Assembly (NCBI GenBank): GCA_016200085.1 | Contig: JACQFL010000050.1 | Span: forward strand, 115,088 to 179,087 | DNA length: 64,000 nt | From: Candidatus Rokuibacteriota bacterium | GTDB taxonomy: Bacteria > Methylomirabilota > Methylomirabilia > Rokubacteriales > CSP1-6 | Reading direction: 5' to 3' | Part shown: in pieces, positions 4,869-63,620 of the stretch | How the letters are laid out: each line of letters begins with the position of its first letter | How positions within the stretch are numbered: position 1 is the first letter of the stretch | The notes under the pieces: generated by a model | Databases searched by the model: none | Told to the model about the DNA's origin: nothing | The model's input: the letters and a program-made list of their open reading frames with translations, nothing else | Made by a program: the position numbers and the translations under genes

Positions 4869-6185
4869 ATGAGCGATCGCTCAGCGGCCGAGGAGCTCCA
4901 CGAGCGGCTCAGCGGGACGCCGACCATCGGCGTCGTGGGCCTGGGTTACGTCGGCCTGCCCCTGGCGGTGGCCTTCGCCGAGTCGGGCGCCCGCGTCGTC
5001 GGCATCGACCTCGATCCCGCGCGCGTGGCCGGCGTCACCGGCGGACGGAGCTTCGTGGAGGACGTGCCCACGGAGGCGCTGCGGCGCCTCGTGGCCTCCG
5101 GCCGTCTGAGCGCGACCGACGACTTCGCGGTCCTCAAGGACGCCGACGCCATCGTCATCTGCGTGCCGACGCCGCTCGGCAAGTCCAAGGAGCCCGACAT
5201 CTCGTTCGTCGTCGGCGCGGCCGACGCGGTGGCGGCGGTCGCCCGGCGGGCGCAGCTCGTGGTGCTCGAATCGACGACCTATCCCGGCAGCACCCAGGAA
5301 ATCCTCCAGCCACGGCTCGAGGCGCGTGGCCTCACGCCGGGCGAAGACGTCTTCCTCGCCTTCTCGCCCGAGCGCATCGATCCCGGCAACCGGCAGTTCG
5401 GGCTGCACAACATCCCCAAGGTCGTGGGCGGCCTCACCCCGCTCTGCCGCGAGCTCGCCATCGCGCTCTACGCGCGCATCACGCCCCGGGTGGTGACCGT
5501 CTCCAGCCCCGCCACCGCGGAGATGGTGAAGCTGCTCGAGAACACCTTCCGCTCGGTGAACATCGCGCTCGCCAACGAGTTCGCGATCATGTGCCGCCGG
5601 CTCGGCATCTCGGTGTGGGAGGTCATCGGGGCCGCCGCCACCAAGCCCTTCGGCTTCATGCCGTTCTATCCCGGGCCGGGGCTCGGCGGTCACTGCCTGC
5701 CCTCCGATCCGCACTACCTCAGCTGGAAGGTGCGCCTGGCCGGCTACGAGCCGCGCTTCATCTCGTTCGCCGACGAGATCAATCGCCAGATGCCCACGTA
5801 CGTCCTCCAGATGGTCACCGACGCGCTCAACGACGGCGGCCGCGCCGTGCGCGGCTCCCGCATCCTCGCCCTCGGCGTGGCCTACAAGCCGAACGTCGCC
5901 GATGTGCGCGACTCGCCCGCGCTCGAGATCGTCGAGGCCCTGGTGCTCAAGGGCGCCCGCGTCGCCTACGCCGACCCCTTCGTGCCCGCCATCAGCATCA
6001 GCGGGGTGAGCCTGCGCGCGGTGGACCTGGACGCGGTGGACGTCGCCGACTGGGACGTGGTCCTCGCGCTCACCGCGCACGCCAGCTTCGACTGGCCTCG
6101 GATCGTCCGCCGCGCGCGCCTCGTCATCGACACCCGGAACGCGACGGCGGCGCTCGGGCCGTCCCGCAACGTCATCAAGCTCTGA
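4869..6185 (+). CDS. nucleotide-sugar dehydrogenase (UDP-glucose/GDP-mannose dehydrogenase family; Ugd/WecC-like)
   Basis: MSDRSAAEELHERLSGTPTIGVVGLGYVGLPLAVAFAESGARVVGIDLD carries the N-terminal NAD Rossmann fold, with a catalytic-Cys region (GLGGHCLPSDPHYL). The ATG at 4869 lies just after the aminotransferase stop. Confidence 0.85.
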   Translation: MSDRSAAEELHERLSGTPTIGVVGLGYVGLPLAVAFAESGARVVGIDLDPARVAGVTGGRSFVEDVPTEALRRLVASGRLSATDDFAVLKDADAIVICVPTPLGKSKEPDISFVVGAADAVAAVARRAQLVVLESTTYPGSTQEILQPRLEARGLTPGEDVFLAFSPERIDPGNRQFGLHNIPKVVGGLTPLCRELAIALYARITPRVVTVSSPATAEMVKLLENTFRSVNIALANEFAIMCRRLGISVWEVIGAAATKPFGFMPFYPGPGLGGHCLPSDPHYLSWKVRLAGYEPRFISFADEINRQMPTYVLQMVTDALNDGGRAVRGSRILALGVAYKPNVADVRDSPALEIVEALVLKGARVAYADPFVPAISISGVSLRAVDLDAVDVADWDVVLALTAHASFDWPRIVRRARLVIDTRNATAALGPSRNVIKL

Positions 6186-7060
6186 TTCCCGCGCTGCTCT
6201 CGTCGCTCCGGCCCCGCCAGTGGGTCAAGAATCTGTTCGTCTTCGCCGGGCTCATCTTCGGCCACCGCCTGTTCACGCCCCTGGTGTGGCCCGCCCTTGG
6301 CGCCTTCGCCATCTTCTGCGCGCTGTCGGGGGCAATCTACCTGCTCAACGACGTGGCCGACCGCGACAAGGACCGGCTGCACCCGACCAAGCGGCTCCGG
6401 CCCATCGCCTCCGGCCGGCTGTCCGTGCCGGCCGCGGTGACGGCCGCCGTCGTGCTCGTCGCGGCGGGCCTGGCCGCGGGAACCCGCCTGGGCCACGCCT
6501 TCGTCGGCGTCGCCCTCGCCTACGCCATCCTCCTGACGGTGTACTCGGCATGGCTCAAGCACTTCGTCATCGTGGACGTGCTGGTGGTGTCGGCCGGCTT
6601 CGTGCTCCGGGCCGTGGGGGGGGCGGTGGCCGTGGATGTCGAGATCTCGGGCTGGCTCCTGATCTGCACGATCCTGATCGCGCTCTTCCTCGCCCTCGGC
6701 AAGCGGCGGTACGAGTACCTCGCGCTCGGCGAGGCGGCCGGCCGCTACCGCCCCATCCTCGCCGAGTACAGCGCGGGCCTGCTCGACCAGATGATCGCCG
6801 TGGTGACCGCCTCCACCGTGACCGCGTACGCGCTCTACACGATGTCGCCGGAGACGGTGGCCAAGTTCCACACGCACCTGCTGCCCGCCACGCTGCCCTT
6901 CGTGCTCTACGGCATCTTCCGATACCTCTATCTCCTGTACGCGCGGCAGCTCGGCGGCAACCCCTCGGAGCTCTTCCTCAACGACCTGCCCCTGCTCGCC
7001 AACACCGTGCTCTGGATCCTCGCGGTGCTCGCGCTCATCTACGGCCCGCGCCTCGGGTAG
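6182..7060 (+). CDS. UbiA-family prenyltransferase, decaprenyl-phosphate phosphoribosyltransferase-like
   Basis: LRPRQWVKNLFVFAGLIFG...YLLNDVADRDKDRLHPTKRLRPIASG carries the NDxxDxxxD motif and multiple TM helices. No ATG/GTG/TTG precedes the conserved N-terminus, so a CTG (6182) or ATT start is inferred. The TAG stop forms part of the TAGAAT box of the next gene. Confidence 0.7.
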   Translation: MIPALLSSLRPRQWVKNLFVFAGLIFGHRLFTPLVWPALGAFAIFCALSGAIYLLNDVADRDKDRLHPTKRLRPIASGRLSVPAAVTAAVVLVAAGLAAGTRLGHAFVGVALAYAILLTVYSAWLKHFVIVDVLVVSAGFVLRAVGGAVAVDVEISGWLLICTILIALFLALGKRRYEYLALGEAAGRYRPILAEYSAGLLDQMIAVVTASTVTAYALYTMSPETVAKFHTHLLPATLPFVLYGIFRYLYLLYARQLGGNPSELFLNDLPLLANTVLWILAVLALIYGPRLG

Positions 7061-7072
7061 AATCGGAGCGGC

Positions 7073-9718
7073 ATGCCGAGCCAGGTCGCCGTCCTGCGCA
7101 CGCGCCCCGAGACCGTCGTCGAGGACTACGGGCGCCTCATGCGGCTGGTGAAGTACGACCAGATCCTCTCGCGCGACACCGATCTCATCCTCAAGCTGAA
7201 CCTCTCGTGGACGAAGTACTTCCCGGCGTGCTCGAGCCAGCCCTGGCAGGTCGACGGCATCCTCAAGACGCTGGTCGACGACGGCTACGAGCGGCGGCGC
7301 CTGCTCCCCGTCGAGAACAAGACCGTGGTCACCAACCCCGACGAGGGCTGCCGCGCCAACAAGTGGCGGCCCGTGCTCCAGCGCCACGGCGTCGGCTTCA
7401 CCGCGCTGCCCGACGTCGAGTGGATCGTCTATCCGTTCAGGTCGCCCCTGCTGAAGCTCAACCGGATCTTTCCCGAGGGCATCCAGATCCCGAAGCTGTA
7501 CCCGGGCAAGAACGTGCTCCACCTGCCCACCGTGAAGTGCGTCCATCCAGATACGGAGATCTTGCTCAGCGACGGCAGATTGATTGGTGCTGAGAGCCTC
7601 GTGAAGGAGTGGCAGGTTCGGGAGCCCGTGCAGTGGCTGCCTGACGGCGATGCCGTCAGTGAAGGTGAGACGAGCGTGGTCTCACTTCGACCAGACGGGC
7701 TCCGCGGTGATCATGCCACCCACTTCTGGCGTACCCCGGTGACCGATGGGCTCGTGTGTGCCATCCGGACTCGTACTGGTCGGCAGGTGACGACATCGAC
7801 GGCACACCCATTCCTTACGCCTGAGGGTTGGAAGCGCGCGACAGACATACGTGTCGGCGACAGAATCGCGGTGGCCCGAAGAATTAGAATTCAAGGTCGC
7901 AGCCAACCGTTGCCCGCAGTCCCAGCGCTGGGCCACGACTCGCTCGATCTCGAGCAGTTGGAGTTTGAGGAGCAACCGCGGTTAACCGTACACGCCCAGC
8001 GCTCGATTGTTCGTGACTATCTCGACGGCGAAACGGTCGCGGAGATCGCTCGCAGGCTTCATGTGGGGCGAAAGATAGTACTGCGATTGCTCGACCGGTG
8101 CGGTGTCACTCTACGTGGTCCGTGGGTGTGGGCCCGTGTTCCCGGCGAGACATCGACGGACTTTTGGCGCTGGATGGGCTACTTCGTTGCGGAGGGTTGG
8201 GCGAGAGAGAACCATGGGTCGTTGGCGATCAACGTCGCCAACAACGATCCCGAGATCCGATCTGATTACATGGCTTTGTGCAAATCGCTATTCGGAGTAT
8301 TGCCTAGAGAGAACGCTGGGACGCTGCGGTTTAATGCCTCGAATTTGAGAAGCTTGTTCGCGCATCTCGGTTTTCGTCCGCCGACGAACGCTGCGACGAA
8401 GCATGTGCCCGATGTGTTGTTCAAGTGCCCCGATGAGGAAATCTCGGGATTCCTATCGGGGTACTTCGACGGGGACGGCACAGTTGGACCCGACGGTGTA
8501 CACGCAACCACGAAGAGTCCGCGCTTGGCCAGTCAGATCCAGATGCTGCTGGCGCGTCTCGGTGTACTCGCGTTTGTAGGTGTGTCGCGCTGCAAGGCCA
8601 CCAATCGCCCATGGACGAAGACTCAGGACTACGCAAAGATCTCGATCTATGGGCAGGATGTCGTTACATTCGCGCGTTGGGTCGGGTTTCGTTGCGCCCG
8701 CAAGCGAGCCCGGCTCCAAGAACTGGTACGTCGGCGGGCGAACGGCAGGCAACCAAGTCACTGGGATACTGTTCCAGTGCCTCCCGCTTTGTTTCGATTC
8801 GTGCGGGAGGGGCTCAAGATCACCCATCGCAGTTCGGAACGCCAGAGTGCGGTCAGCAACATTGAATGGAAACATACTGAACCTACTCGACCAGTCGTTC
8901 AGTATTTCGTTGATCTATTCGAACGACATGATACGAGCGGCCGTTTCCGCGATGAGATCGCGTATATGCGCTACCTCGCGCAAGACGACATTGCGTGGGA
9001 TCGAGTGTCGGACAAGGCTGAAAAGGCAGCTGAAGTCCCGTACCTCTACGATCTTTCAGTACGCGATTCGCGGTCGTTTATCGGCAACGGAATCGTTCTC
9101 CATAACACCCACGGCCACTCTGTCACAACGGGAGCGATAAAGAACAGCTTCGGAGGCTTGCTGAAGGAAGCCCGACACTATGCTCATGAGTTTATGCATG
9201 ACGTACTGGTTGACCTCATGTATATGCAGCGTGAGATCCATCCAGCCGCTCTGGCGGTGATGGACGGGACGGTCATGGGCGACGGCGCCGGCCCCCGTAC
9301 GATGGTGCCGCGCGAGGGCAACCTGATCCTGGCCTCGGCGGACCAGGTCGCCATCGACGCCATCGCCGCGCGGATCATGGGCTTCGACCCGCTCGCCATC
9401 CCGTACCTCCGGATGTGCCACGAGCGCGGGCTCGGGGTGGCGGACCCCCGCGACATCGAGATCGTCGGCGACGAGGACGCGGCGCGGGTCAGCATGGGCT
9501 TCAAGACCAGCCGCAGCCTGGTGATCTGGGGCGACCAGCTCATCCGGCGCGGCCCGCTCAGGCCGCTCAAGCGCCTGCTGCTGCACTCCCCCCTGGTGGT
9601 CTGGGCCCCCTTCGCCTCGAACGTCTACCACGACCTGCTCTGGTACCCGACGGTCGGCCGCGCCCGCATCCGCGCCTTCCGCGCCACGCCCTGGGGAGCC
9701 CTCTTCGAGAAGTACTGA
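7073..9718 (+). CDS. DUF362-family protein interrupted by an in-frame intein (precursor 881 aa; predicted spliced product ~358 aa)
   Basis: The N-extein (155 aa, ...ILKLNLSW...KNVLHLPTVK) and C-extein (203 aa, THGHSVTTGAIKNSFGGLL...VMDGTVMGDGAGP...) join to a normal DUF362-like protein. The internal 523 aa have intein splice-junction and LAGLIDADG motifs. Confidence 0.8.
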   Translation: MPSQVAVLRTRPETVVEDYGRLMRLVKYDQILSRDTDLILKLNLSWTKYFPACSSQPWQVDGILKTLVDDGYERRRLLPVENKTVVTNPDEGCRANKWRPVLQRHGVGFTALPDVEWIVYPFRSPLLKLNRIFPEGIQIPKLYPGKNVLHLPTVKCVHPDTEILLSDGRLIGAESLVKEWQVREPVQWLPDGDAVSEGETSVVSLRPDGLRGDHATHFWRTPVTDGLVCAIRTRTGRQVTTSTAHPFLTPEGWKRATDIRVGDRIAVARRIRIQGRSQPLPAVPALGHDSLDLEQLEFEEQPRLTVHAQRSIVRDYLDGETVAEIARRLHVGRKIVLRLLDRCGVTLRGPWVWARVPGETSTDFWRWMGYFVAEGWARENHGSLAINVANNDPEIRSDYMALCKSLFGVLPRENAGTLRFNASNLRSLFAHLGFRPPTNAATKHVPDVLFKCPDEEISGFLSGYFDGDGTVGPDGVHATTKSPRLASQIQMLLARLGVLAFVGVSRCKATNRPWTKTQDYAKISIYGQDVVTFARWVGFRCARKRARLQELVRRRANGRQPSHWDTVPVPPALFRFVREGLKITHRSSERQSAVSNIEWKHTEPTRPVVQYFVDLFERHDTSGRFRDEIAYMRYLAQDDIAWDRVSDKAEKAAEVPYLYDLSVRDSRSFIGNGIVLHNTHGHSVTTGAIKNSFGGLLKEARHYAHEFMHDVLVDLMYMQREIHPAALAVMDGTVMGDGAGPRTMVPREGNLILASADQVAIDAIAARIMGFDPLAIPYLRMCHERGLGVADPRDIEIVGDEDAARVSMGFKTSRSLVIWGDQLIRRGPLRPLKRLLLHSPLVVWAPFASNVYHDLLWYPTVGRARIRAFRATPWGALFEKY
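7538..9106 (+). mobile_element. intein with LAGLIDADG homing-endonuclease domain (523 aa) inserted in the DUF362 gene
   Basis: Starts with Cys (CVHPDTEILLSDG). Block-B TxxH is present (TTSTAHPFLTPEGW). LAGLIDADG motifs are WMGYFVAEGW and SGYFDGDGTV. The intein ends GIVLHN and is followed by Thr (+1 nucleophile). Local GC is clearly lower than the flanks. Confidence 0.8.
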
Positions 9719-9748
9719 GAGCCCGTGAAGAACCTGACGCGACGTCGA

Positions 9749-9813
9749 GGGGCGCCACGGGTTCCCCGGGGCGCCCCGAGCGTTGGGGGGCTTGGGGGCG
9801 CCCGGAGCCCCCA
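9749..9813. repeat. GC-rich double-hairpin intergenic element, copy 1 (second copy at 45716..45781)
   Basis: Hairpin ggggcgcc...ggcgcccc followed by the conserved gagcgttggggggcttgggggcgcccggagccccca. A near-identical block occurs at 45744..45781. Confidence 0.7.
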
Positions 9814-9848
9814 TGTGGTCAGTCGCGACGCGGTAGAATGACGCTGTC

Positions 9849-14145: not shown

Positions 14146-17009
14146 ATGGCGCTCAACAACCTGGAGCGGTACGCCGCCCAGGTCGACCGCAGCGTCTTCT
14201 ACCGCACGCTGGCCGAGCATCCGGGCGCCGCCGCGCTGCTCGCCCGGCTCTTCGGCTCGAGCCAGTTCCTCGCCGACGCGCTCAGGATCCGCCCCGTGCT
14301 CCTCTCCTGGCTCCTCGAGGGCGGGACCATGCGGGCATGGCTGCCGGAGGACCTCGCCGCCGACCTCGCGGCGGCGGTGGCGCCGTTCACCACCCGGGAG
14401 GGACGTCTCAAGGCGCTCCGGCGCTTCAAGTACCGCCAGCTCGTGCGCATCGCCAGCCGTGACCTGCTCGGCGACGCTGACCTCACGGTGACCACCGAAG
14501 AGCTCGCCCATGTCGCCGATGCGTGCCTCGAGCAGGCGTGCCGCTGGGCGCTCGCCGCCGGAGCGGCCGATCACGGGGCCCCCCTAGACGGCGCCGGGCA
14601 GCCGACCGGGCTCGCGGTCGTCGGCATGGGCAAGCTCGGGGGCGAGGAGCTCAACTACTCCTCGGACGTCGACCTCATGTTCGTGTACGGCGAGGACGGC
14701 GAGACCGCGGGCGGCCCCGGCGGGCGCGTCGCCAACGGGGAGTTCTTCGCCCGCGTCTGCCGCGACGTCGTGGAGGCCATCGAGAGCGTGACCGACGAAG
14801 GCCACGTCTTCCGCGTGGATCTCCGCCTGCGCCCGGAGGGGCGGATGGGGCCCATCGTGCTGTCCCTCGACGGGTACCGGCGCTACTACGCCGCGCGGGC
14901 CGAGCTCTGGGAGCGGCAGGCGCTGCTCAAGGCGCGCATCTGCGCCGGCGACCGCGCGGTCGGCGGGCGCTTCACGGACCTCGTCCGCGAGGTCGTCTAC
15001 CGGCCTGGCCTCGATCCGGCCGTGGTCCCCGCCATCCGGGGGATGAAGAGTGAGATCGACCGCGCGCTGAGGACGAAGGGCGGCGAGCGCGACAACGTCA
15101 AGCTCGGACCGGGCGGCATCCGCGAGATCGAGTTCGTCGTCCAGGCGCTGCAGCTCCTCTACGCCGGCGACGACTCGTGGCTCCGCGAGCGCGGCACGCT
15201 CAAGGCGATCTTCCGCCTGCTGGAGCGTGGGTACCTGGCTCCCGATCTCGGCCGCGCCCTGTCCGGCGCCTACGTCCACCTGCGCACGGTCGAGCATCGG
15301 CTGCAGATCCTCCACGAGTTCCAGACCCACTCGCTGCCGCGCGATGCCGGCGCGCTGGCCCGCCTCGCCCGGCGGGTCGGCATCGAAGCCCGGGGCGCGG
15401 CGGCGGCGCGGCGGTTCGTCGCCGAGCACCGCCGGGTGCGGGCCACCGTGCAGCGCGCGTTCAGGGAATTCTGCGCCGAGCGCCCCGAGCCGCGCGCGCG
15501 GCCGCCGCGCCTGCCCAGCCTGCTCGCGCTGACGGCGACGGGCTTCCGCGACCCGGAGCGCGCGCGGGCCAACCTGAAAATGATCCGCGAAGGACGCCCG
15601 CTGGTGCCGTACGCCGCCGACCTGCGCGCCACGCTCGACCGGCTGCAGCCGATGCTGCTCGACGCGGTCTGGAAGAGCCCGGATCCCGACGAGGCCCTCA
15701 ACCAGCTCGAGCGCTTCCTGGCCGCCGTCGGGCCACGGGCCGGCCTCGTCGAGATGCTCGCCTCCGAGCCCGCGGTGCTGACCGGGCTGGCGCGGCTCTG
15801 CGCGGGCGGCGACCTGCTGACCCAGCTGCTGATCACCAGCCGGACCTGCTCGCCTCGCTCGCCGATCCCCGCCGGGTGGTCGAGCGGAAGACGGCGCGCG
15901 ACTTCCGCGCCGCCCTCGCGCCGGTGTTCGCGCCGGGCCTCGCCCGGGCCGAGCAGTGGGATGCGCTGAGACGGCTCAAGCAGGCCGAGGAGCTCCAGGT
16001 CGTCTGGCGGTACCTGCTCGGGACGGCGAGCATCGATCGCTACGCGCGTGAGATGACGGCGCTCGCCGAAGCCACGCTCGCCGCGGGCTGGACGCTCGCC
16101 CAGATGGACCTCGTGGAGCGCCACGGCGTGCCGCGCGACGGGCGGGGGCGCTTCGTGCCCGCCGTGCTCGTGGCCATGGGCAAGCTGGGGGGACGGGAGA
16201 TCGTCACCGGCTCCGACCTCGACGTCTTCGTGGTCTTCGCCGGCGACGGCGCGACCGACGGGCCAACGCGCGTCGAGGCGCACACGTTCTGGAGCGACTG
16301 CGTGGCGCGCCTGGCCGCGACCCTGGGCGACATCACGGCCGCCGGGGTGGCGTTTCCCGTCGACCTGCGCCTGAGACCCGGGAGCAAGGGCAGCGGCTTC
16401 GCCGCCAGCCTCGACGCGCTGGAGCGCTACTATCGCGAGCACGGGGATCTGTGGGAGCGCCAGACCCTCGTCCGCGCCCGCCTGGTGCTCGGCGACCGCG
16501 TGCTGGCCCGGCGCGTGCGGGTCGTGCTGCGCGCCCTCGTCTACGGGGCGCCGCTCGACCGCACCGGGCTCAAGGAGATCGCCGAGGTCCGCGCGCGGAT
16601 GCAGGTCGAGCTGGGCAAGGAGACGCCGGGGCGGCTGCACGTGAAGTTCGGCCGCGGCGGGCTCGTGGACGTGGAGTTCCTCGCCCAGGCGCTGCAGCTC
16701 GTCCACGGCGCCGGGGCAGTGGAGGTCCGGTGCTGCGCGACGGCCGCCGCCCTCCGGGGGCTGGCGCGCGTGGGGGCCCTCGAGGCCGGGGCCGCGGCGG
16801 CGCTGGTGGAGCACGCGCGGTTCCTCCGGCGGCTCTCCGCGGCGCTGCGGCTGCTCGGCGCCCGTCCGGCCGACACCCTCGATCTCGCCGGACCGATGCC
16901 GGCGCGGGTGGCCAGCGCGCTCGGCCACGCCTCGCGCGCGGAGTTCCTCGCGGAGTACCGGCGGCGCACCGGCGCGGTGCGCGCCGCCTGGGAGGCGCTC
17001 CGGGCATGA
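14146..17009 (+). CDS. glnE: bifunctional glutamine synthetase adenylyltransferase/adenylyl-removing enzyme GlnE, split by an apparent -1 frameshift near 15838. The N-terminus probably extends upstream toward 13942.
   Basis: Two GlnE nucleotidyltransferase halves are present (GMGKLGGEELNYSSDVDLMFVY and AMGKLGGREIVTGSDLDVFVVF), in ORFs 14146..15969 and 15177..17009. They join at cagctgctgatcaccagccggacctgctc (LLITS|PDLLASLADP). The two parts sum to ~955 aa, as for intact GlnE. Confidence 0.8.
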
Positions 17010-25698: not shown

Positions 25699-26607
25699 AT
25701 GGCAGTGCGGGCGCTGCTGCACTATGCTCTCGAGGTTCCCGATCAGACCGTGGGCGAGAAGTTCTACCGGAACTTCGGGCTCGTCGACGAGCCGGCCCGC
25801 GACGGGGCCGTTCACTTGAGGCCGGCGAGGCTCGAGCGCGAGTCCGTCCTCCTCTACGCGGGCCCGAGGAAGCGGCTGCACCATCTGGCGTTCGGCGCCG
25901 CCGGCGACGAGTTCGAGGCCACGCGCGAGTCGCTGCGGCGCGCGGGCGTCGGGGAGATGGATCCGCCGCGCGGCGGTCCCGAGGGCGGGATCTGGTTGCG
26001 TGATCCCGACGGGAACGCCGTGAACGTGCGCGCGGAGACGAGCGAGCTTCCGCCGCCCGATCCGCCGCTCACGCTGAACGCGCCGGGCCACATCAGCCGC
26101 GTCGCCCGGCGCGGCTACCCCGAGGCCATGGAGCCGCGGCCGCGCCGGCTCGGTCACGTGCTGCTGTTCACGCCGGACATCGACCGCCAGCTCGCCTTCT
26201 ACACCCAGGCCCTCGGCATGAAGCTGTCCGACCGCGCGCAGCGCGTCGTCGCCTTCCTGCGCTGCACGACCGATCACCACAACCTGGCCTTCCTGACGTC
26301 CGCCGGCCCGGGCTTCCACCACGGCTCGTTCGAGGTGGGCAGCGTGGACGAGATCGCCATGGGCGCCCTCGCGATGCAGAGGGCGGGCTGGCAGCCGGGC
26401 TGGGGCCTGGGCCGCCACGTGATCGGCTCGAACTTCTTCTTCTACATCCGGGATCCCTGGGGCTCCTTCGCCGAGTACTTCCACGACATCGACTACATCC
26501 CCGAGGACTGTGCCTGGCAGGCGCGCGACTTTCCCGAGCAGGACGCGCTCTACAAGTGGGGCCCGCCGGTGCCAGACGACTTCGGCCTCAACCGCGAGCT
26601 CGCCTGA
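25699..26607 (+). CDS. two-domain VOC family protein (glyoxalase/bleomycin-resistance/extradiol dioxygenase-like)
   Basis: MAVRALLHYALEVPDQTVGEKFYRNFGL...LGHVLLFTPDIDRQLAFYTQALGMKL shows duplicated VOC modules. An RBS GGAGGTG lies upstream. 302 aa. Confidence 0.7.
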   Translation: MAVRALLHYALEVPDQTVGEKFYRNFGLVDEPARDGAVHLRPARLERESVLLYAGPRKRLHHLAFGAAGDEFEATRESLRRAGVGEMDPPRGGPEGGIWLRDPDGNAVNVRAETSELPPPDPPLTLNAPGHISRVARRGYPEAMEPRPRRLGHVLLFTPDIDRQLAFYTQALGMKLSDRAQRVVAFLRCTTDHHNLAFLTSAGPGFHHGSFEVGSVDEIAMGALAMQRAGWQPGWGLGRHVIGSNFFFYIRDPWGSFAEYFHDIDYIPEDCAWQARDFPEQDALYKWGPPVPDDFGLNRELA

Positions 26608-26718
26608 CCGACCGTGGAGGGCCCCGACATGGTCCCCCGTGCTCCCCACCCGGAGCGACGCGGCCACGCCGTCGCACTCCTCGCTGCTCCGACAGGCTCC
26701 TCGCGCGGGCCGACGTAG

Positions 26719-42673: not shown

Positions 42674-43354
42674 ATGAGCGACGCGTTGGGACGCATCCTG
42701 ATCGTGGACGACGAGACACCGGTGGTCGAGGTGCTGAGCGAGTACTTCACCTCGCAGGGCTACAAGGTGGAGACGGCGCCCAACGGCGCCGATGCGCTCA
42801 ACGCCGTCCGCCACGAGCGGCCGGATCTCGTCCTGCTCGACATCCGCATGCCCGGCATGGACGGCGTCGAGGTGCTGCGGCGGCTGCGCGATCTCGACAG
42901 CAGCATCGCGGTGATCATGGTCACGGCCAACGAGGACGTGGCGCTGGCGCGGGAGACGCTCAAGATCGGCGCCTTCGACTACGTCGCCAAGCCCTTCGAC
43001 TTCCGGTACCTCGATCGGGCGGTGGCCGCGGGCCTCCTGCAGGCCGAGACGCCCATGGCCTTCGGGACCGCGCCCACCGACAACGACGACGATCCCTGGC
43101 GCCGGCTCGCGGTGCGCATCTTCCGCGCCGTGCGCGGCATGACCCTCCAGGGGCGGGCGGCCACGGGCGAGCGCCTCGAGAACGCCGTGCTGGCCGGCGC
43201 GCGCGACGCCAGCAACGGCCATCCCGGGGGCGCCGTCCAGCACCTCAACGAGGTCGCCCTCCTCGTCGGGATCGCCGCCGATCTCGGGGACATCCGCATG
43301 ACGGCGCGCTCGGAGATCGAGGCGGCCCTCGCGGCCGTGCGCAAGGCGCTGTAA
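42674..43354 (+). CDS. response regulator (CheY-like receiver plus uncharacterised C-terminal domain)
   Basis: ILIVDDETPVVEVL...DLVLLDIRMPGMDGVEVLRRL is a receiver domain with the phospho-acceptor Asp. The ~100-aa C-terminal domain has no obvious HTH. Confidence 0.7.
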   Translation: MSDALGRILIVDDETPVVEVLSEYFTSQGYKVETAPNGADALNAVRHERPDLVLLDIRMPGMDGVEVLRRLRDLDSSIAVIMVTANEDVALARETLKIGAFDYVAKPFDFRYLDRAVAAGLLQAETPMAFGTAPTDNDDDPWRRLAVRIFRAVRGMTLQGRAATGERLENAVLAGARDASNGHPGGAVQHLNEVALLVGIAADLGDIRMTARSEIEAALAAVRKAL

Positions 43355-43441
43355 TCACTCGAAGGGGGCTTCGACGGCCCCCTCCGAGCCGCCCCCACCG
43401 AACCGTTGCGCCGGCAAAGCCGGCGCTCGAACCTCGAGGGC

Positions 43442-45659: not shown

Positions 45660-45715
45660 GGTGAGCTTAACGCGACCGCCGAGAGCTCCGAGCGTCGGGG
45701 GTCTGGGGAACGAGC

Positions 45716-45781
45716 AGCGCCCTGGGTTTCCCAGGGCGCTTGCGAGCGTTGGGGGGTCTGGGGGGCGCCCGGAGCCCCCCA
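45716..45781. repeat. GC-rich double-hairpin intergenic element, copy 2 (copy 1 at 9749..9813)
   Basis: Hairpin agcgccctgggtttcccagggcgct, then gagcgttggggggtctggggggcgcccggagcccccca. A partial copy (gagcgtcgggggtctgggg) lies at 45689..45707. Confidence 0.7.
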
Positions 45782-45788
45782 GCCTCAA

Positions 45789-46580
45789 CTAGATCCTGCG
45801 CAGCACGACCACCATCAGCAGGGGGTGGCGCGACTTCTCGAGGATCTGGTGCGGCTTGAAGCCGAAGAACCACTGCTCGAACGCGAAACCGCCGGCCAGC
45901 GCCACCAGCGCCCGGAGCTCCTGGGGGAAGACCATCCGCGACAGATGGGTCTGCCGGTAGATGCGGCGCGTGCCGTTCTCGACGGCCTCCAGCGTCATCC
46001 GCTCGCGGAAGACCTGGCTCACCGGATCGACGTCGTGCAGGGCCGAGAACGACGCCCGCACGATCAGGCGGCCCCGCCGCCGCGACCACGACCAGGCCCG
46101 CGCCGGATCCGTCCAGGAGGAGGTCATGTAGCGGTCGAAGATGTAGAGTCCGCCCCGTCGGAGGGCTCGCGCCACGCACCTGAGATGCGCGACCAGCGCC
46201 TCGTTGGTGAGCAGGTGGCCCTGGGAGTCCTGCATGCAGATCGCCGCGTCGACCGGCCGGGTCAGGCGGAAGTCGGTCATGTCGCCCACCACGGCCTCGC
46301 CGCGATACCCCTTCTCGGCCAGGCGCCGGCGCAGGAAGTCGATGTTCTTCGGGGAGAGGTCCAGCCCGACCGTCTCGTAGCCGCGCCCGGCGAGGCGCAT
46401 GAGGTGCGGCCCGGTGCCGCAGGCGATGTCGAGCACGCGGCGGACCGGGCGCCGGGCGTACCGCTTGAAGCAGTGGACGAGGAAGTCGACCTCGCCCTTG
46501 CGGTTCATGTCGAAGGCGATCTCGTAGAGCCTCGGCGCCGAGTACTCGCGGGTGCGGTCACGGCCGCGCGGGGCGCTCAT
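45789..46580 (-). CDS. class I SAM-dependent methyltransferase
   Basis: VLDIACGTGPHLMRLAGRGYETVGLDLS (motif I). The start is inferred at MSAPRG, whose ATG overlaps the agmatinase stop (ATGA). Confidence 0.6.
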   Translation of the reverse strand: MSAPRGRDRTREYSAPRLYEIAFDMNRKGEVDFLVHCFKRYARRPVRRVLDIACGTGPHLMRLAGRGYETVGLDLSPKNIDFLRRRLAEKGYRGEAVVGDMTDFRLTRPVDAAICMQDSQGHLLTNEALVAHLRCVARALRRGGLYIFDRYMTSSWTDPARAWSWSRRRGRLIVRASFSALHDVDPVSQVFRERMTLEAVENGTRRIYRQTHLSRMVFPQELRALVALAGGFAFEQWFFGFKPHQILEKSRHPLLMVVVLRRI

Positions 46581-47443
46581 CGAAGAGCTCCCCACCAGGC
46601 CAGCATCGACTCCCGGATGACCCATGCCGCGGCGATCCCCGTCCGTCCCGACGGGTCCCAGGCATGGGCGACCTCGACCAGGTCACCGCCGATGACCCGG
46701 CAGCGGGCGAGCAGGTGGACGATCTCGACGAGCTCGCGGACGTCGATCCCGCACGGCTCGGGCGAGCCGGTGCCCGGCGCCTGAGACGGGTCCAGGACGT
46801 CGATGTCGATCGTCACGTAGAGCGGGCGGCCGGCCAGCTCGGGCAGGAGGGACCGCACGGCGTCCACCGGGCGCCCCGCGAAGCCCGGGAAGAAGCGGGG
46901 CCGCCGGCGCTCGTACTCCTCGCGCGCGCCCGTCCTGATCCCGACCTGATACACCCGCTCCGGCGGGACGACGTCCATCACCCGCGCCATCGCGGAGGCG
47001 TAGTTGTACCGCTCGCCCAGGAACTGCTCGCGCAGGTCGGGATGGGCGTCGAGCTGCAGCACGCAGAGGTCGGGGAAGGCCGGGGCCAGCGTCTCGATGA
47101 CAGGCACGGTCGCGGTGTGATCGCCGCCGAGCATGTAGGGCAGCAGGCCGGGATGCCACCAGGCGGCGATCTGCTCCCGGGCGGCGTCGAGCTGCTCCCG
47201 CGGCGGGGCGCCATCGGGCAGCTCGCAGTCCCCGACGTCGGCCAGCGGCAGATCCTCCAGATCGCGGCCGAGGAGCGGGGAGTACGTCTCGACCGAGTCG
47301 GAGGCGAGCCGGAGGTCGCGGGGGCCGGCGTCGGCCCCCTTCCTCAGATTCACCCGGCCCTCGAAGGGGATGCCGTAGACGATGATGCGGGAGCCCGCCA
47401 GCAGCCGCTGGCAGGCGATGAAGCGAGGCGAAACCTCGCGCAG
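46577..47443 (-). CDS. speB: agmatinase (ureohydrolase family); start uncertain
   Basis: IIVYGIPFEGRVNLRKGADAGPRDLR...GGDHTATVPV...DAHPDL...DIDVLDP are arginase-family metal-binding motifs. No canonical start precedes the conserved N-terminus. The ORF-track start at 47605 overlaps pdaD out of frame. Confidence 0.75.
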   Translation of the reverse strand: MREVSPRFIACQRLLAGSRIIVYGIPFEGRVNLRKGADAGPRDLRLASDSVETYSPLLGRDLEDLPLADVGDCELPDGAPPREQLDAAREQIAAWWHPGLLPYMLGGDHTATVPVIETLAPAFPDLCVLQLDAHPDLREQFLGERYNYASAMARVMDVVPPERVYQVGIRTGAREEYERRRPRFFPGFAGRPVDAVRSLLPELAGRPLYVTIDIDVLDPSQAPGTGSPEPCGIDVRELVEIVHLLARCRVIGGDLVEVAHAWDPSGRTGIAAAWVIRESMLAWWGALR

Positions 47444-54469: not shown

Positions 54470-54590
54470 TGATCGAGATGGGGGGTTCGACCCCCCCATG
54501 CCCCTTCCACGCTCGGCCCGCCCCGGCCAAGCCAAGGCGGGCCTCGATCTCGGGCGAACTGAGAGGGGGTTCGACCCCCCATACGCTCGA
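54470..54590. repeat. two copies of a GGGGGTTCGACCCCC hairpin motif in the rarA-ddl spacer
   Basis: gatggggggttcgacccccccatgc and gagagggggttcgaccccccatacgc lie ~90 nt apart. Confidence 0.6.
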
Positions 54591-63544: not shown

Positions 63545-63620
63545 CGGGCGGATAGCTCAGCCGGGAGAGCACAGCCCTTACAAGGCTGGGGTCGCAGGTT
63601 CGAGCCCTGCTCCGCCCACC
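63545..63620 (+). tRNA. tRNA-Val (anticodon TAC), CCA encoded
   Basis: GGGCGGATAGCTCAGCCGGGAGAGCACAGCCCTTACAAGGCTGGGGTCGCAGGTTCGAGCCCTGCTCCGCCCACCA folds as a cloverleaf (7-bp acceptor, GCTC/GAGC D-stem, CAGCC/GGCTG anticodon stem, loop CTTACAA, GCAGG/CCTGC T-stem, TTCGAGC T-loop). Confidence 0.85.

Follow-up and report, generated by a model that had tools for sequence, protein, structure and literature searches.

Among described repeats, the closest counterparts of the element reported here are the repetitive extragenic palindromic (REP) sequences and their composites, the bacterial interspersed mosaic elements (BIMEs) and REPINs, which belong to the Proteobacteria and are moved by RAYT (Y1/HUH) transposases. 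As portrayed in PMC3733652, PMC2817692 and PMC3116915, these are short, extragenic, high-copy and GC-rich palindromic sequences that carry a conserved unpaired tag beside the hairpin, form mosaic clusters, prefer co-directional and convergent spacers and gene 3′ ends, show presence/absence polymorphism without target duplication, and have a near-consensus 'master' sequence common to many copies. All of these features, the high copy number apparently among them, recur in a repeat found in a 64,000-nucleotide (nt) stretch of a Candidatus Rokuibacteriota genome (assembly GCA_016200085.1, contig JACQFL010000050.1, positions 115,088 to 179,087; the whole stretch is called the window below, and positions are counted from its first letter). 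An initial annotation of this DNA had drawn attention to two near-identical GC-rich double-hairpin blocks, and both are present, with sequences and coordinates as it reported. The two blocks belong to a family of short mosaic repeats, non-coding and high-copy, that extends across the order in the Rokubacteria (Rokubacteriales, Methylomirabilota), and it is very likely that this family is mobile or selfish.

The core unit is about 75 nt long and consists of (A)TCGAGG, hairpin 1, CC-GAGCGTTGGGGGG-TNT, hairpin 2 and AY; the two GC-rich hairpins are dissimilar, and ahead of each stands a tag that is conserved and unpaired. For 150 copies the consensus reads (A)TCGAGG-AGCGCC-A-CGGC-TTC-GCCG-G-GGCGCT-CC-GAGCGTTGGGGGG-TNT-GGGGGGCC-ATNTCGG-GGCCCCCC-AY. 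Conservation extends from about 36 nt 5′ of the linker to about 43 nt past the linker start; in the 150-copy alignment the columns of the TCGAGG tag are more than 90% conserved, and the linker GAGCGTTGGGGGG (motif B) is the most conserved stretch of the family, a conservation partly due to the search pattern.

In the first block (copy 1, + strand), hairpin 1 lies at 9749-9777 (GGGGCGCC-A-CGGG-TTC-CCCG-G-GGCGCCCC), the unpaired linker at 9778-9793 (GAGCGTTGGGGGGCTT, that is GAGCGTTGGGGGG-CTT, or motif B plus TNT) and hairpin 2 at 9793-9813 (T-GGGGGC-GCCCGGA-GCCCCC-A), the last base of the linker, 9793, also pairing within hairpin 2. The loop of this hairpin is an uncommon variant: the consensus loop is ATNTCGG, and the form CGCCCGGAG seen in copies 1 and 2 occurs in 5 of 143. 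The 5′ tag TCGAGG occupies 9745-9750, its final two bases (9749-9750) starting hairpin 1, and is preceded by an optional 5′ module of the M5b type (GAGCCCGTGAAGAACCTGACGCGACG, 9719-9744, +). Copy 1 thus runs 5′ as far as 9719 and abuts a TGA stop codon, an extension that had been overlooked. The core of the second block (copy 2) spans 45710-45782 of the + strand, antisense to the local genes (77.3 bits, E 4.7e-14 with the covariance model), and comprises an ACGAGC tag, hairpin 1 at 45716-45740 (AGCGCCCTGGG-TTT-CCCAGGGCGCT), the linker at 45744-45759 (GAGCGTTGGGGGGTCT) and hairpin 2 at 45758-45782 (CTGGGGGGC-GCCCGGA-GCCCCCCAG). Hairpin 2 has one G and one C more in copy 2 than in copy 1, so the difference between the two is itself compensatory. 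The 21-mer GAGCGTTGGGGGGYYTGGGGG common to both copies occurs twice in the window against 0.04 times expected from shuffles; this excess and the at least 116 contigs elsewhere with the core rule out chance or low-complexity G/C runs.

An exact scan with the 21-nt core GAGCGTTGGGGGGNNTGGGGG, covering one genome per species, matched at least 116 contigs. Among the matches listed, 114 of these contigs come from 37 assemblies, one labelled Acidoferrum and the others Rokubacteria, Rokuibacteriota or Methylomirabilota, and the two remaining matches (Blastococcus and Hymenobacter) lack the rest of the element and are due to chance. An nhmmer profile of the copies gave 211 hits in 857 kb, and a covariance model 173 hits in 730 kb. 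Clusters occur once per 13 kb in the window and once per about 22 kb (to 23 kb) in the fetched loci when the hits by which these were selected are discounted. Rokubacteria genomes measure 6-8 Mb, with an unusually large non-coding fraction of 8-17% (PMC5712423); extrapolated from the density rather than counted, a genome of 6-8 Mb would hold a few hundred copies. Identical or near-consensus cores are present in separate assemblies. A literature search returned no description of the repeat, and no REP/RAYT-type system is described for the Methylomirabilota in the searchable literature; the family is previously undescribed, yet of a familiar general kind. As members of a repeat family, the two blocks should have further copies elsewhere and a structure kept in relatives, and both were found: the core recurs on at least 116 contigs and the hairpins covary strongly.

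The assembly labelled Candidatus Acidoferrum sp. (DATHGT01) has full copies on three contigs (L060, L089 and L097; L numbers denote the loci compared). One of them, L060, is syntenic with the Rokubacteria contig L037 at about 71% DNA identity. The DATHGT01 bin is probably mislabelled or contaminated, and horizontal spread of the repeat into it is less likely.

Both hairpins are maintained by compensatory change. In hairpin 1, 10 of the 12 pairs have changed on both sides over 148 distinct copies, with 95.5% of cells paired; RNAalifold reports A-U 81, C-G 30 and G-C 20 times at one position of this hairpin and C-G 87 and G-C 56 times at another. In hairpin 2 the lengths of the G-run and the C-run vary together, with 96 cases of (6,6) and 19 of (5,5). 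The base ahead of the G-run is variable and pairs with the second one past the C-run, as G-C in 49 and A-T in 32 cases, compared with 3 G·T and 4 A·C. Overall, 16 of 22 pairs have changed on both sides in the model-based alignment, and standard pairs fill 95.2% of cells, compared with 86.2% in column shuffles (none of 500 reached the observed value) and 42-56% when partners were slid.

The mismatches that do occur are strongly one-sided. When the G-rich strand is read, G·T or T·G cells number 60 and A·C or C·A cells 8; the lean is in one direction at 14 pair positions and in the opposite direction at 2. A duplex or a cruciform gives no cause for such an asymmetry, which indicates that the folding form is a single strand of fixed polarity. 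The rate of G·T per copy is 0.28 for copies sense to the flanking genes and 0.35 for those antisense to them, with A·C rare in both; since the wobble rate is alike in the two classes, the constraint on the hairpins does not come from host mRNAs. The folded form is the G-rich strand only, regardless of the direction in which the host genes are transcribed. The initial annotation had placed the repeat at the DNA level, and if a duplex site is meant, the 60:8 ratio on one strand contradicts it. The G-rich strand also holds four G-tracts (G4, G6, G6, G4) and, going by these letters, may alternate between hairpin and G-quadruplex.

The element has been gained and lost at orthologous sites. According to Pfam assignments, copy 1 is flanked by the stop of a DUF362 gene (7073-9718, +) and the start of gltX (+), and copy 2 by the stop of an S-adenosylmethionine (SAM) methyltransferase gene (45789-46625, −) and the start of an rlmI-like rRNA methyltransferase gene (−). 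With genes on the + strand at copy 1 and on the − strand at copy 2, the copies have opposite polarity relative to transcription, as had been proposed at the outset. The spacer between DUF362 and gltX measures 130 nt in the window but 0 nt in L117 and L118 (a TGATG overlap) and 11 nt in L120, three loci with the same gene order, a GltX identity of 77-78% and ...TAC TGA followed by gltX. In the window, the DUF362 gene ends with the TGA at 9716-9718 (+), the repeat starts at the following base, and the last 33 nt of the spacer contain TAGAAT. The DUF362 gene of the window additionally carries an intein with a LAGLIDADG homing-endonuclease domain (Pfam Intein_splicing, amino acids (aa) 197-678; LAGLIDADG_3, aa 456-538); DUF362 is without an intein in L117, L118 and L120, and the orthologues in L117 and L120 are intein-free proteins of 358 aa.

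At the second site, the spacer between the methyltransferase and rlmI-like genes is 132 nt in the window and only 14, 15 and 26 nt in L122-L124 (70-71% identity). The native ...cggcgg-TAAGCT-N7-ATG is still visible downstream of the copy 2 element, which places the insertion point directly past the stop codon, the TAG at 45789-45791 (−); the foot of hairpin 2 is 6 nt away from this TAG. In the closest relative, L121 (78%), the spacer measures 140 nt (439-578) and holds a much-diverged two-hairpin element in the same place and orientation. Its stems are entirely different (GCGCGGGC-GAA-GCCCGCGC and GGGGG-CGTTA-CCCCC), and it could reflect fast structure-preserving divergence, subfamily replacement or independent insertion in the same slot. 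Four additional filled/empty pairs were found among the fetched loci, and one of the filled/empty comparisons, L103/L091, sets the boundaries of the core at TCGAGG...CCCCCCA.

The copies are distributed without regard to the direction of co-directional neighbours (33 sense, 41 antisense). This ratio and the core on at least 116 contigs bear out the initial view of a dispersed repeat family that is indifferent to neighbouring gene direction and not gene-specific. An association with gene 3′ ends is evident as well: relative to element-free spacers of the same loci, convergent contexts number 29 against 13 expected and divergent ones 7 against 18 (p = 1.7e-6), a 2.2-fold excess and a 2.6-fold deficit. 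Copies of either orientation occupy the first few bases past stop codons. On the hairpin-2 side, where a gene on the opposite strand ends, the start of the stop codon is exactly 6 nt past the C-run for 23 of 54 such genes, and for 44 of them it is 1-8 nt past it; on the 5′ side, one base plus CGAGG comes next after the upstream stop in 5 cases, and in 5 cases at 16 nt the 5′ module adjoins the stop. The nearest hairpin foot is about 4 nt from the stop in both modal arrangements.

Downstream of the element, a −10-like box is found in 5 of 39 cases where a gene start follows and in 0 of 69 where a gene end follows. An outward promoter borne by the element was considered and is not counted in the repeat, because the boxes are more simply the downstream genes' own promoters near the start codon. 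At copy 1, TAGAAT (9834-9839, +) stands 9 nt before the GTG of gltX (9849), inside the inserted block and outside the recognised repeat; the two-hexamer promoter scan did not call it, and a promoter role would be an inference. It is absent from the relatives, where gltX overlaps or abuts DUF362, and so arose with or after the insertion. The box before the rlmI-like gene (TAAGCT-N7-ATG, 45664-45669, −) is conserved in L121 (569-574) and L124 (1989-1994). Several genes have such a −10-like box 6-13 nt from the start codon, and the boxes at 6-9 nt suggest that mRNAs of this lineage have no leader or a very short one.

The family is modular. Two related 5′ modules, (CT)AGGAGCCTGTCGGAGTAT (M5a) and (TC)AGAGCCCGTGAACGAATCGCGG (M5b), precede the core in 32-36 of about 135 clusters, or about a quarter; copy 1 has the (TC)AGAGCCCGTGAACGAATCGCGG type. 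A 5′ module without the two-hairpin core occurs directly after a stop codon in L106 (2207-2219) and L053 (about 6568-6600, −), reading GAGCCTGTCGG... or CAGAGCCCGTG..., and the L053 site is 'empty' relative to L045; such a module may be independent, a landing site or a scar of core loss. Hairpin 2 is also found alone, as a palindrome of about 25 nt, and the linker plus hairpin 2 without hairpin 1. As many as four copies of the 45-nt unit of TCGAGG, hairpin 1 and linker can stand ahead of one hairpin 2 (L067), and whole units with spacer form head-to-tail arrays with a period of 83-102 nt, in which the inner units are without the 3′ arm of hairpin 2. Two to four copies make up 41 of 153 clusters, with mixed orientation in only 2 of the 153, and tandem copy number differs between the near-identical contigs L034 and L036.

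Two observations concern smaller repeats inside the element. A second small palindrome, GGGTGCGTCCGCGCACCCC, is present as one to three tandem units in the hairpin 1 loop of several copies and makes a repeat nested in a repeat: L115 (−), L027 (6725-6856), L084 (1916-2035), L029 (4897-5027), L053 (3903-4013) and L043 (+, near 5310). In L098 (236-312, +) the G-run between linker and hairpin 2 has grown into GGGGGGTATGGGGGGGGATGGGGGGGATGGGGGGTATGGGGGG, which resembles microsatellite slippage.

The proposal that the blocks are REP/BIME-like stands as regards mosaic and modular build, gene 3′ ends and presence/absence at orthologous sites, and fails as regards strict membership. A REP, as defined in PMC3733652, has an unpaired GTAG (or CGTC, TGTC, CCTC) tetranucleotide at one end of its palindrome. 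Here, the tags are TCGAGG for hairpin 1 and GAGCGTTGGGGGGTNT for hairpin 2, and the consensus has neither GTAG nor CTAC, CGTC and TGTC being found in subsets only. In place of one palindrome of 20-40 nt there are two different hairpins and a conserved 16-nt linker in about 75 nt, and in place of the inverted pairs or alternating units of REPINs and BIMEs there are direct tandem arrays with a period of 45 or 83-102 nt. Furthermore, no RAYT was found, in a search that is a weak test, and the host belongs to the Methylomirabilota. The repeat is not a member of the REP families as PMC3733652 defines them.

Other described systems share different parts of this picture. The BOX elements of Streptococcus pneumoniae (boxA-boxB(n)-boxC) are likewise modular, with a middle module that varies in number as it does in L067, are predicted to fold strongly and lie between genes and near them. 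Their ends are partly complementary, unlike the 5′ module of the Rokubacteria repeat, which has no inverted partner, and no sequence relationship is to be expected between AT-rich Firmicutes and a lineage of 70% G+C. For BOX too, the mobilising enzyme is not known. The PATE-like elements derived from IS200/IS605, moved as single-stranded DNA by TnpA, resemble the repeat in having a hairpin near each end, strand-specific structure and neither terminal inverted repeats nor target duplication, and insertion beside a short target would fit the neighbourhood of stop codons. The left and right hairpins of these PATE-like elements resemble each other since one enzyme reads both; in the Rokubacteria repeat the stem, the loop and the tag all differ between the two hairpins. 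An IS200/IS605-style target was not apparent either: no conserved tetra- or pentanucleotide lies beside the ends, the flanks being variable except for the stop codon.

The explanation that we favour, and consider more likely than not, is a non-autonomous REP/BIME- or BOX-like mosaic repeat propagated through a single-stranded intermediate of fixed polarity. The simplest such intermediate would be single-stranded DNA, and a trans-acting enzyme would recognise each tag-plus-hairpin, as HUH/Y1 transposases do at REPs and at the ends of IS200/IS605; that single-stranded DNA is indeed what an HUH-type enzyme reads here is a tentative suggestion. The position behind stop codons would most simply be a matter of survival, since a copy in that slot spares the coding sequence as well as the region in which the next gene starts. 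The median length of co-directional spacers that lack the element is 24 nt, empty sites measure 0-26 nt and −10-like boxes lie 6-13 nt from the starts, which leaves the bases directly past the upstream stop as the only harmless slot. Alternatively, there may be a true target preference, given that copies with a 5′ module often have CTAG or TNA at their two ends. Local effects, such as the uncoupling of neighbouring genes and a very stable hairpin 4-6 nt past a stop, would be by-products, some of them maybe co-opted.

Several observations weigh against this explanation or against the figures on which it draws. Copies are no more similar within an assembly (0.78) than between assemblies (0.80), no recent burst is visible, and neither genome-specific subfamilies nor concerted evolution was seen in that comparison. 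The two hairpins differ, unlike the paired ends of IS200/IS605 or a REP. The alignment from which pairs were counted was fitted to the model and its copies are related to one another, and the conservation of the linker is inflated, the loci having been fetched by that motif. The context counts come from our own gene calls, based on G+C content at third codon positions (GC3) in fragments of metagenome-assembled genomes (MAGs), and are crude, with 79% of the sequence called coding. No bias of orientation relative to local GC skew or gene strand was found, in a test that is weak on 8-kb pieces. An RNA intermediate, or a transcript of the element itself, accounts for the polarity equally well. Finally, no mobilising enzyme was found: tblastn of 857 kb with IS200 TnpA and Escherichia coli RAYT queries returned only noise (E at least 0.5), a weak test, and the genes around the copies are housekeeping genes.

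The same search covered only about 8 kb per locus, so that a single-copy gene is easily missed, and within that reach neither tnpA nor tnpB was seen near the copies. Two sets of candidates were discarded. The locus with the best tblastn score, L074, contains metabolic genes, and the genes lying between oppositely oriented copies encode a LigD primase-polymerase, UbiD and an HhH protein rather than transposases.

One rival explanation holds that the repeat is selected by the host as an mRNA element, a U-tract-independent bidirectional terminator or an exonuclease-blocking 3′-end hairpin recruited at many gene ends. The concentration of copies at gene 3′ ends, enriched in convergent and depleted in divergent contexts, is what such a role would produce, stable hairpins are possible on both strands, and their feet stand a fixed few nt past the stops; Liang, Rudd and Deutscher are said to have reported in 2015 an effect of E. 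coli REPs on how the gene upstream is translated when the REP lies no more than about 15 nt from the stop. The likeness to intrinsic terminators, a very stable GC-rich hairpin few nt past a stop, ends at the hairpin. No T-run lies past either hairpin on either strand, the consensus continuing with AYGT past hairpin 2 and the opposite strand with hairpin 2 followed by ACACCCCCCAACGCTC, and a terminator scan of both loci finds none. The same sequence is moreover present in dozens of species, and the constraint on it is independent of transcription direction: the G·T asymmetry stays on the element strand when the host transcribes the other one, and the mRNA then has a C·A mismatch in place of each wobble. 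The orthologous sites of relatives dispense with the element altogether. The bidirectional terminator offered in the initial annotation finds no support in the sequence, and host selection for an mRNA function is in our judgement unlikely, if still worth bearing in mind; a terminating or 3′-end-protecting side effect that does not depend on a U-tract may exist.

A second rival takes the repeat for a family of small RNA genes or of retro-copied RNA, each copy or a master copy being transcribed from the G-rich strand and the tags and hairpins serving the RNA. Conserved unpaired stretches beside covarying stems are typical of structured RNAs, the strand polarity is independent of the host genes, and 5′-truncated copies as well as variable 5′ modules on a constant 3′ half would fit copying of this kind. 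The unit, however, has no conserved promoter or terminator, and a sigma-70 promoter scan found none at the two sites. Rfam 15 has no family that matches the element at gathering threshold, and at E up to 10 both loci returned only sub-threshold noise, which rules out a known RNA family; the sole hit at gathering threshold in the window is a tRNA (63546-63618, +). Many copies fill a narrow gap between a stop and the gene that follows, partial and tandem modules look like the outcome of DNA rearrangement, and no reverse transcriptase was noticed, no search having been aimed at one. An RNA-gene family is a doubtful alternative with a small chance of being correct.

A bolder version of the mobile-element explanation has a similarly small chance: a new strand-specific mobile element with two unlike tag-plus-hairpin signals, which an enzyme so far not tied to such repeats would recognise on the single G-rich strand, the element being aimed at, or retained in, the first bases past stops. 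If this were true, the hairpin, standing about 4 nt from the stop whichever way the element points, could link the end of translation to the fate of the mRNA at hundreds of genes.

Very unlikely, in our estimate, is a site in duplex DNA for a host protein (a nucleoid protein, gyrase or a recombinase, as proposed for BIMEs) or a signal for DNA uptake or organisation. The linker GAGCGTTGGGGGG is highly conserved and the repeat is orientation-independent relative to genes, and BIMEs are said in PMC2817692 to bind several proteins. Such a site leaves the compensatory changes of the stems and the tolerance of G·T on one strand unexplained, the conservation of the linker is inflated by the way in which loci were fetched, and about one copy per 13-23 kb is a low density for an uptake signal.

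The ends of the element bear on the weakest rival. Terminal inverted repeats were not found: the reverse complement of the 5′ module occurs downstream 13 times against 9-14 in controls, and nothing at the right end is an inverted match to the left end (TCGAGG or GAGCCYGT). Nor is there a general signal of target-site duplication around the copies. Copies with a 5′ module often have CTAG or TCA(G) at their two ends (CTAG...CTAG in L100, L108, L019 and L098; TCA...TCA in L077 and L058), and matches between flanks were compared with shuffled pairs for 3- and 4-mers (P 0.42 and 0.12), a control from which an invariant target would hide a duplication. Flank duplications of 14-20 nt are rare and resemble remnants of tandem units (L010, L014, L027, L068, L078 and L082). 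Some ends of the IS5 group begin with GAG, as the 5′ module does. A classical miniature inverted-repeat transposable element (MITE), that is a deletion derivative of a DDE transposon (of the IS5 or IS630 type, for instance) that has terminal inverted repeats and duplicates a TA, TNA or CTAG target, would explain the stop-codon neighbourhood, the GAG and the frequent CTAG or TCA(G), but is highly improbable in view of the missing inverted repeat, flank matching not above that of shuffled pairs, the rarity and tandem-remnant look of long duplications, and a 5′ module that also stands alone at an 'empty' site.

Beyond the two blocks first noted, the covariance model finds three further copies in the window, five in all, with 77, 70.5, 63, 42 and 27 bits, and the strand changes four times among these five copies in 64 kb. 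The model extents of the known copies are 45701-45789 (copy 2, +, 77 bits) and 9736-9821 (copy 1, +, 70.5 bits). Copy 3 (54470-54556, −, 63.2 bits) has the hairpin 2 variant GGGGGGG-TCGAA-CCCCCC. Copy 4 is degenerate (26607-26693, −, 42.3 bits), lies between the stop of a glyoxalase-family gene (26605-26607) and an epimerase gene, and has a (CT)AGGAGCCTGTCGGAGTAT type 5′ module (M5a) at 26689-26705 (−, GGAGCCTGTCGGAGCAG). Copy 5 is probable, being weak and diverged (43352-43439, −, 27 bits, E 5.6e-4 with filters off), and its hairpin-2 end adjoins the TAA stop of the gene at 42674-43354. These three copies are more diverged than copies 1 and 2 and are absent from the initial annotation, as is a half copy beside copy 2 (45690-45709, +, GAGCGTCGGGGGTCTGGGGA) that comprises motif B and the start of hairpin 2. 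A partial copy of motif B plus hairpin 2 (GAGCGTATGGGGGGTCGAACCCCC, 54565-54588, −) lies immediately upstream of copy 3. Partial and stacked modules of this kind are frequent throughout the family.

Apart from the repeat family, the window contains coding direct repeats that are about 71-75% identical and about 1.55 kb apart (14613-14707/16163-16257 and 15095-15169/16639-16713). These pairs, in the region 14613-16713, look like the internal duplication of a two-domain gene, and relatives have a GlnE-type adenylyltransferase with doubled domains nearby.

Here, we described a repeat family that accounts for a visible share of the large non-coding fraction of Rokubacteria genomes (8-17%, PMC5712423). 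For annotation, the repeat should be masked or labelled, which the covariance model does, and not called as terminators, small RNAs or small open reading frames (ORFs). Its insertion polymorphism is usable as a strain-typing marker for an uncultured soil (and groundwater) lineage. The family is also a clean case of hairpins kept by compensatory change on one strand independently of host transcription, the signature expected of a single-stranded transposition or copying intermediate. For the host, the repeat splits gene pairs that overlap or nearly abut in relatives, as at DUF362-gltX, and adds stable hairpins a few bases past stops, and in doing so it probably reshapes the expression of operons.

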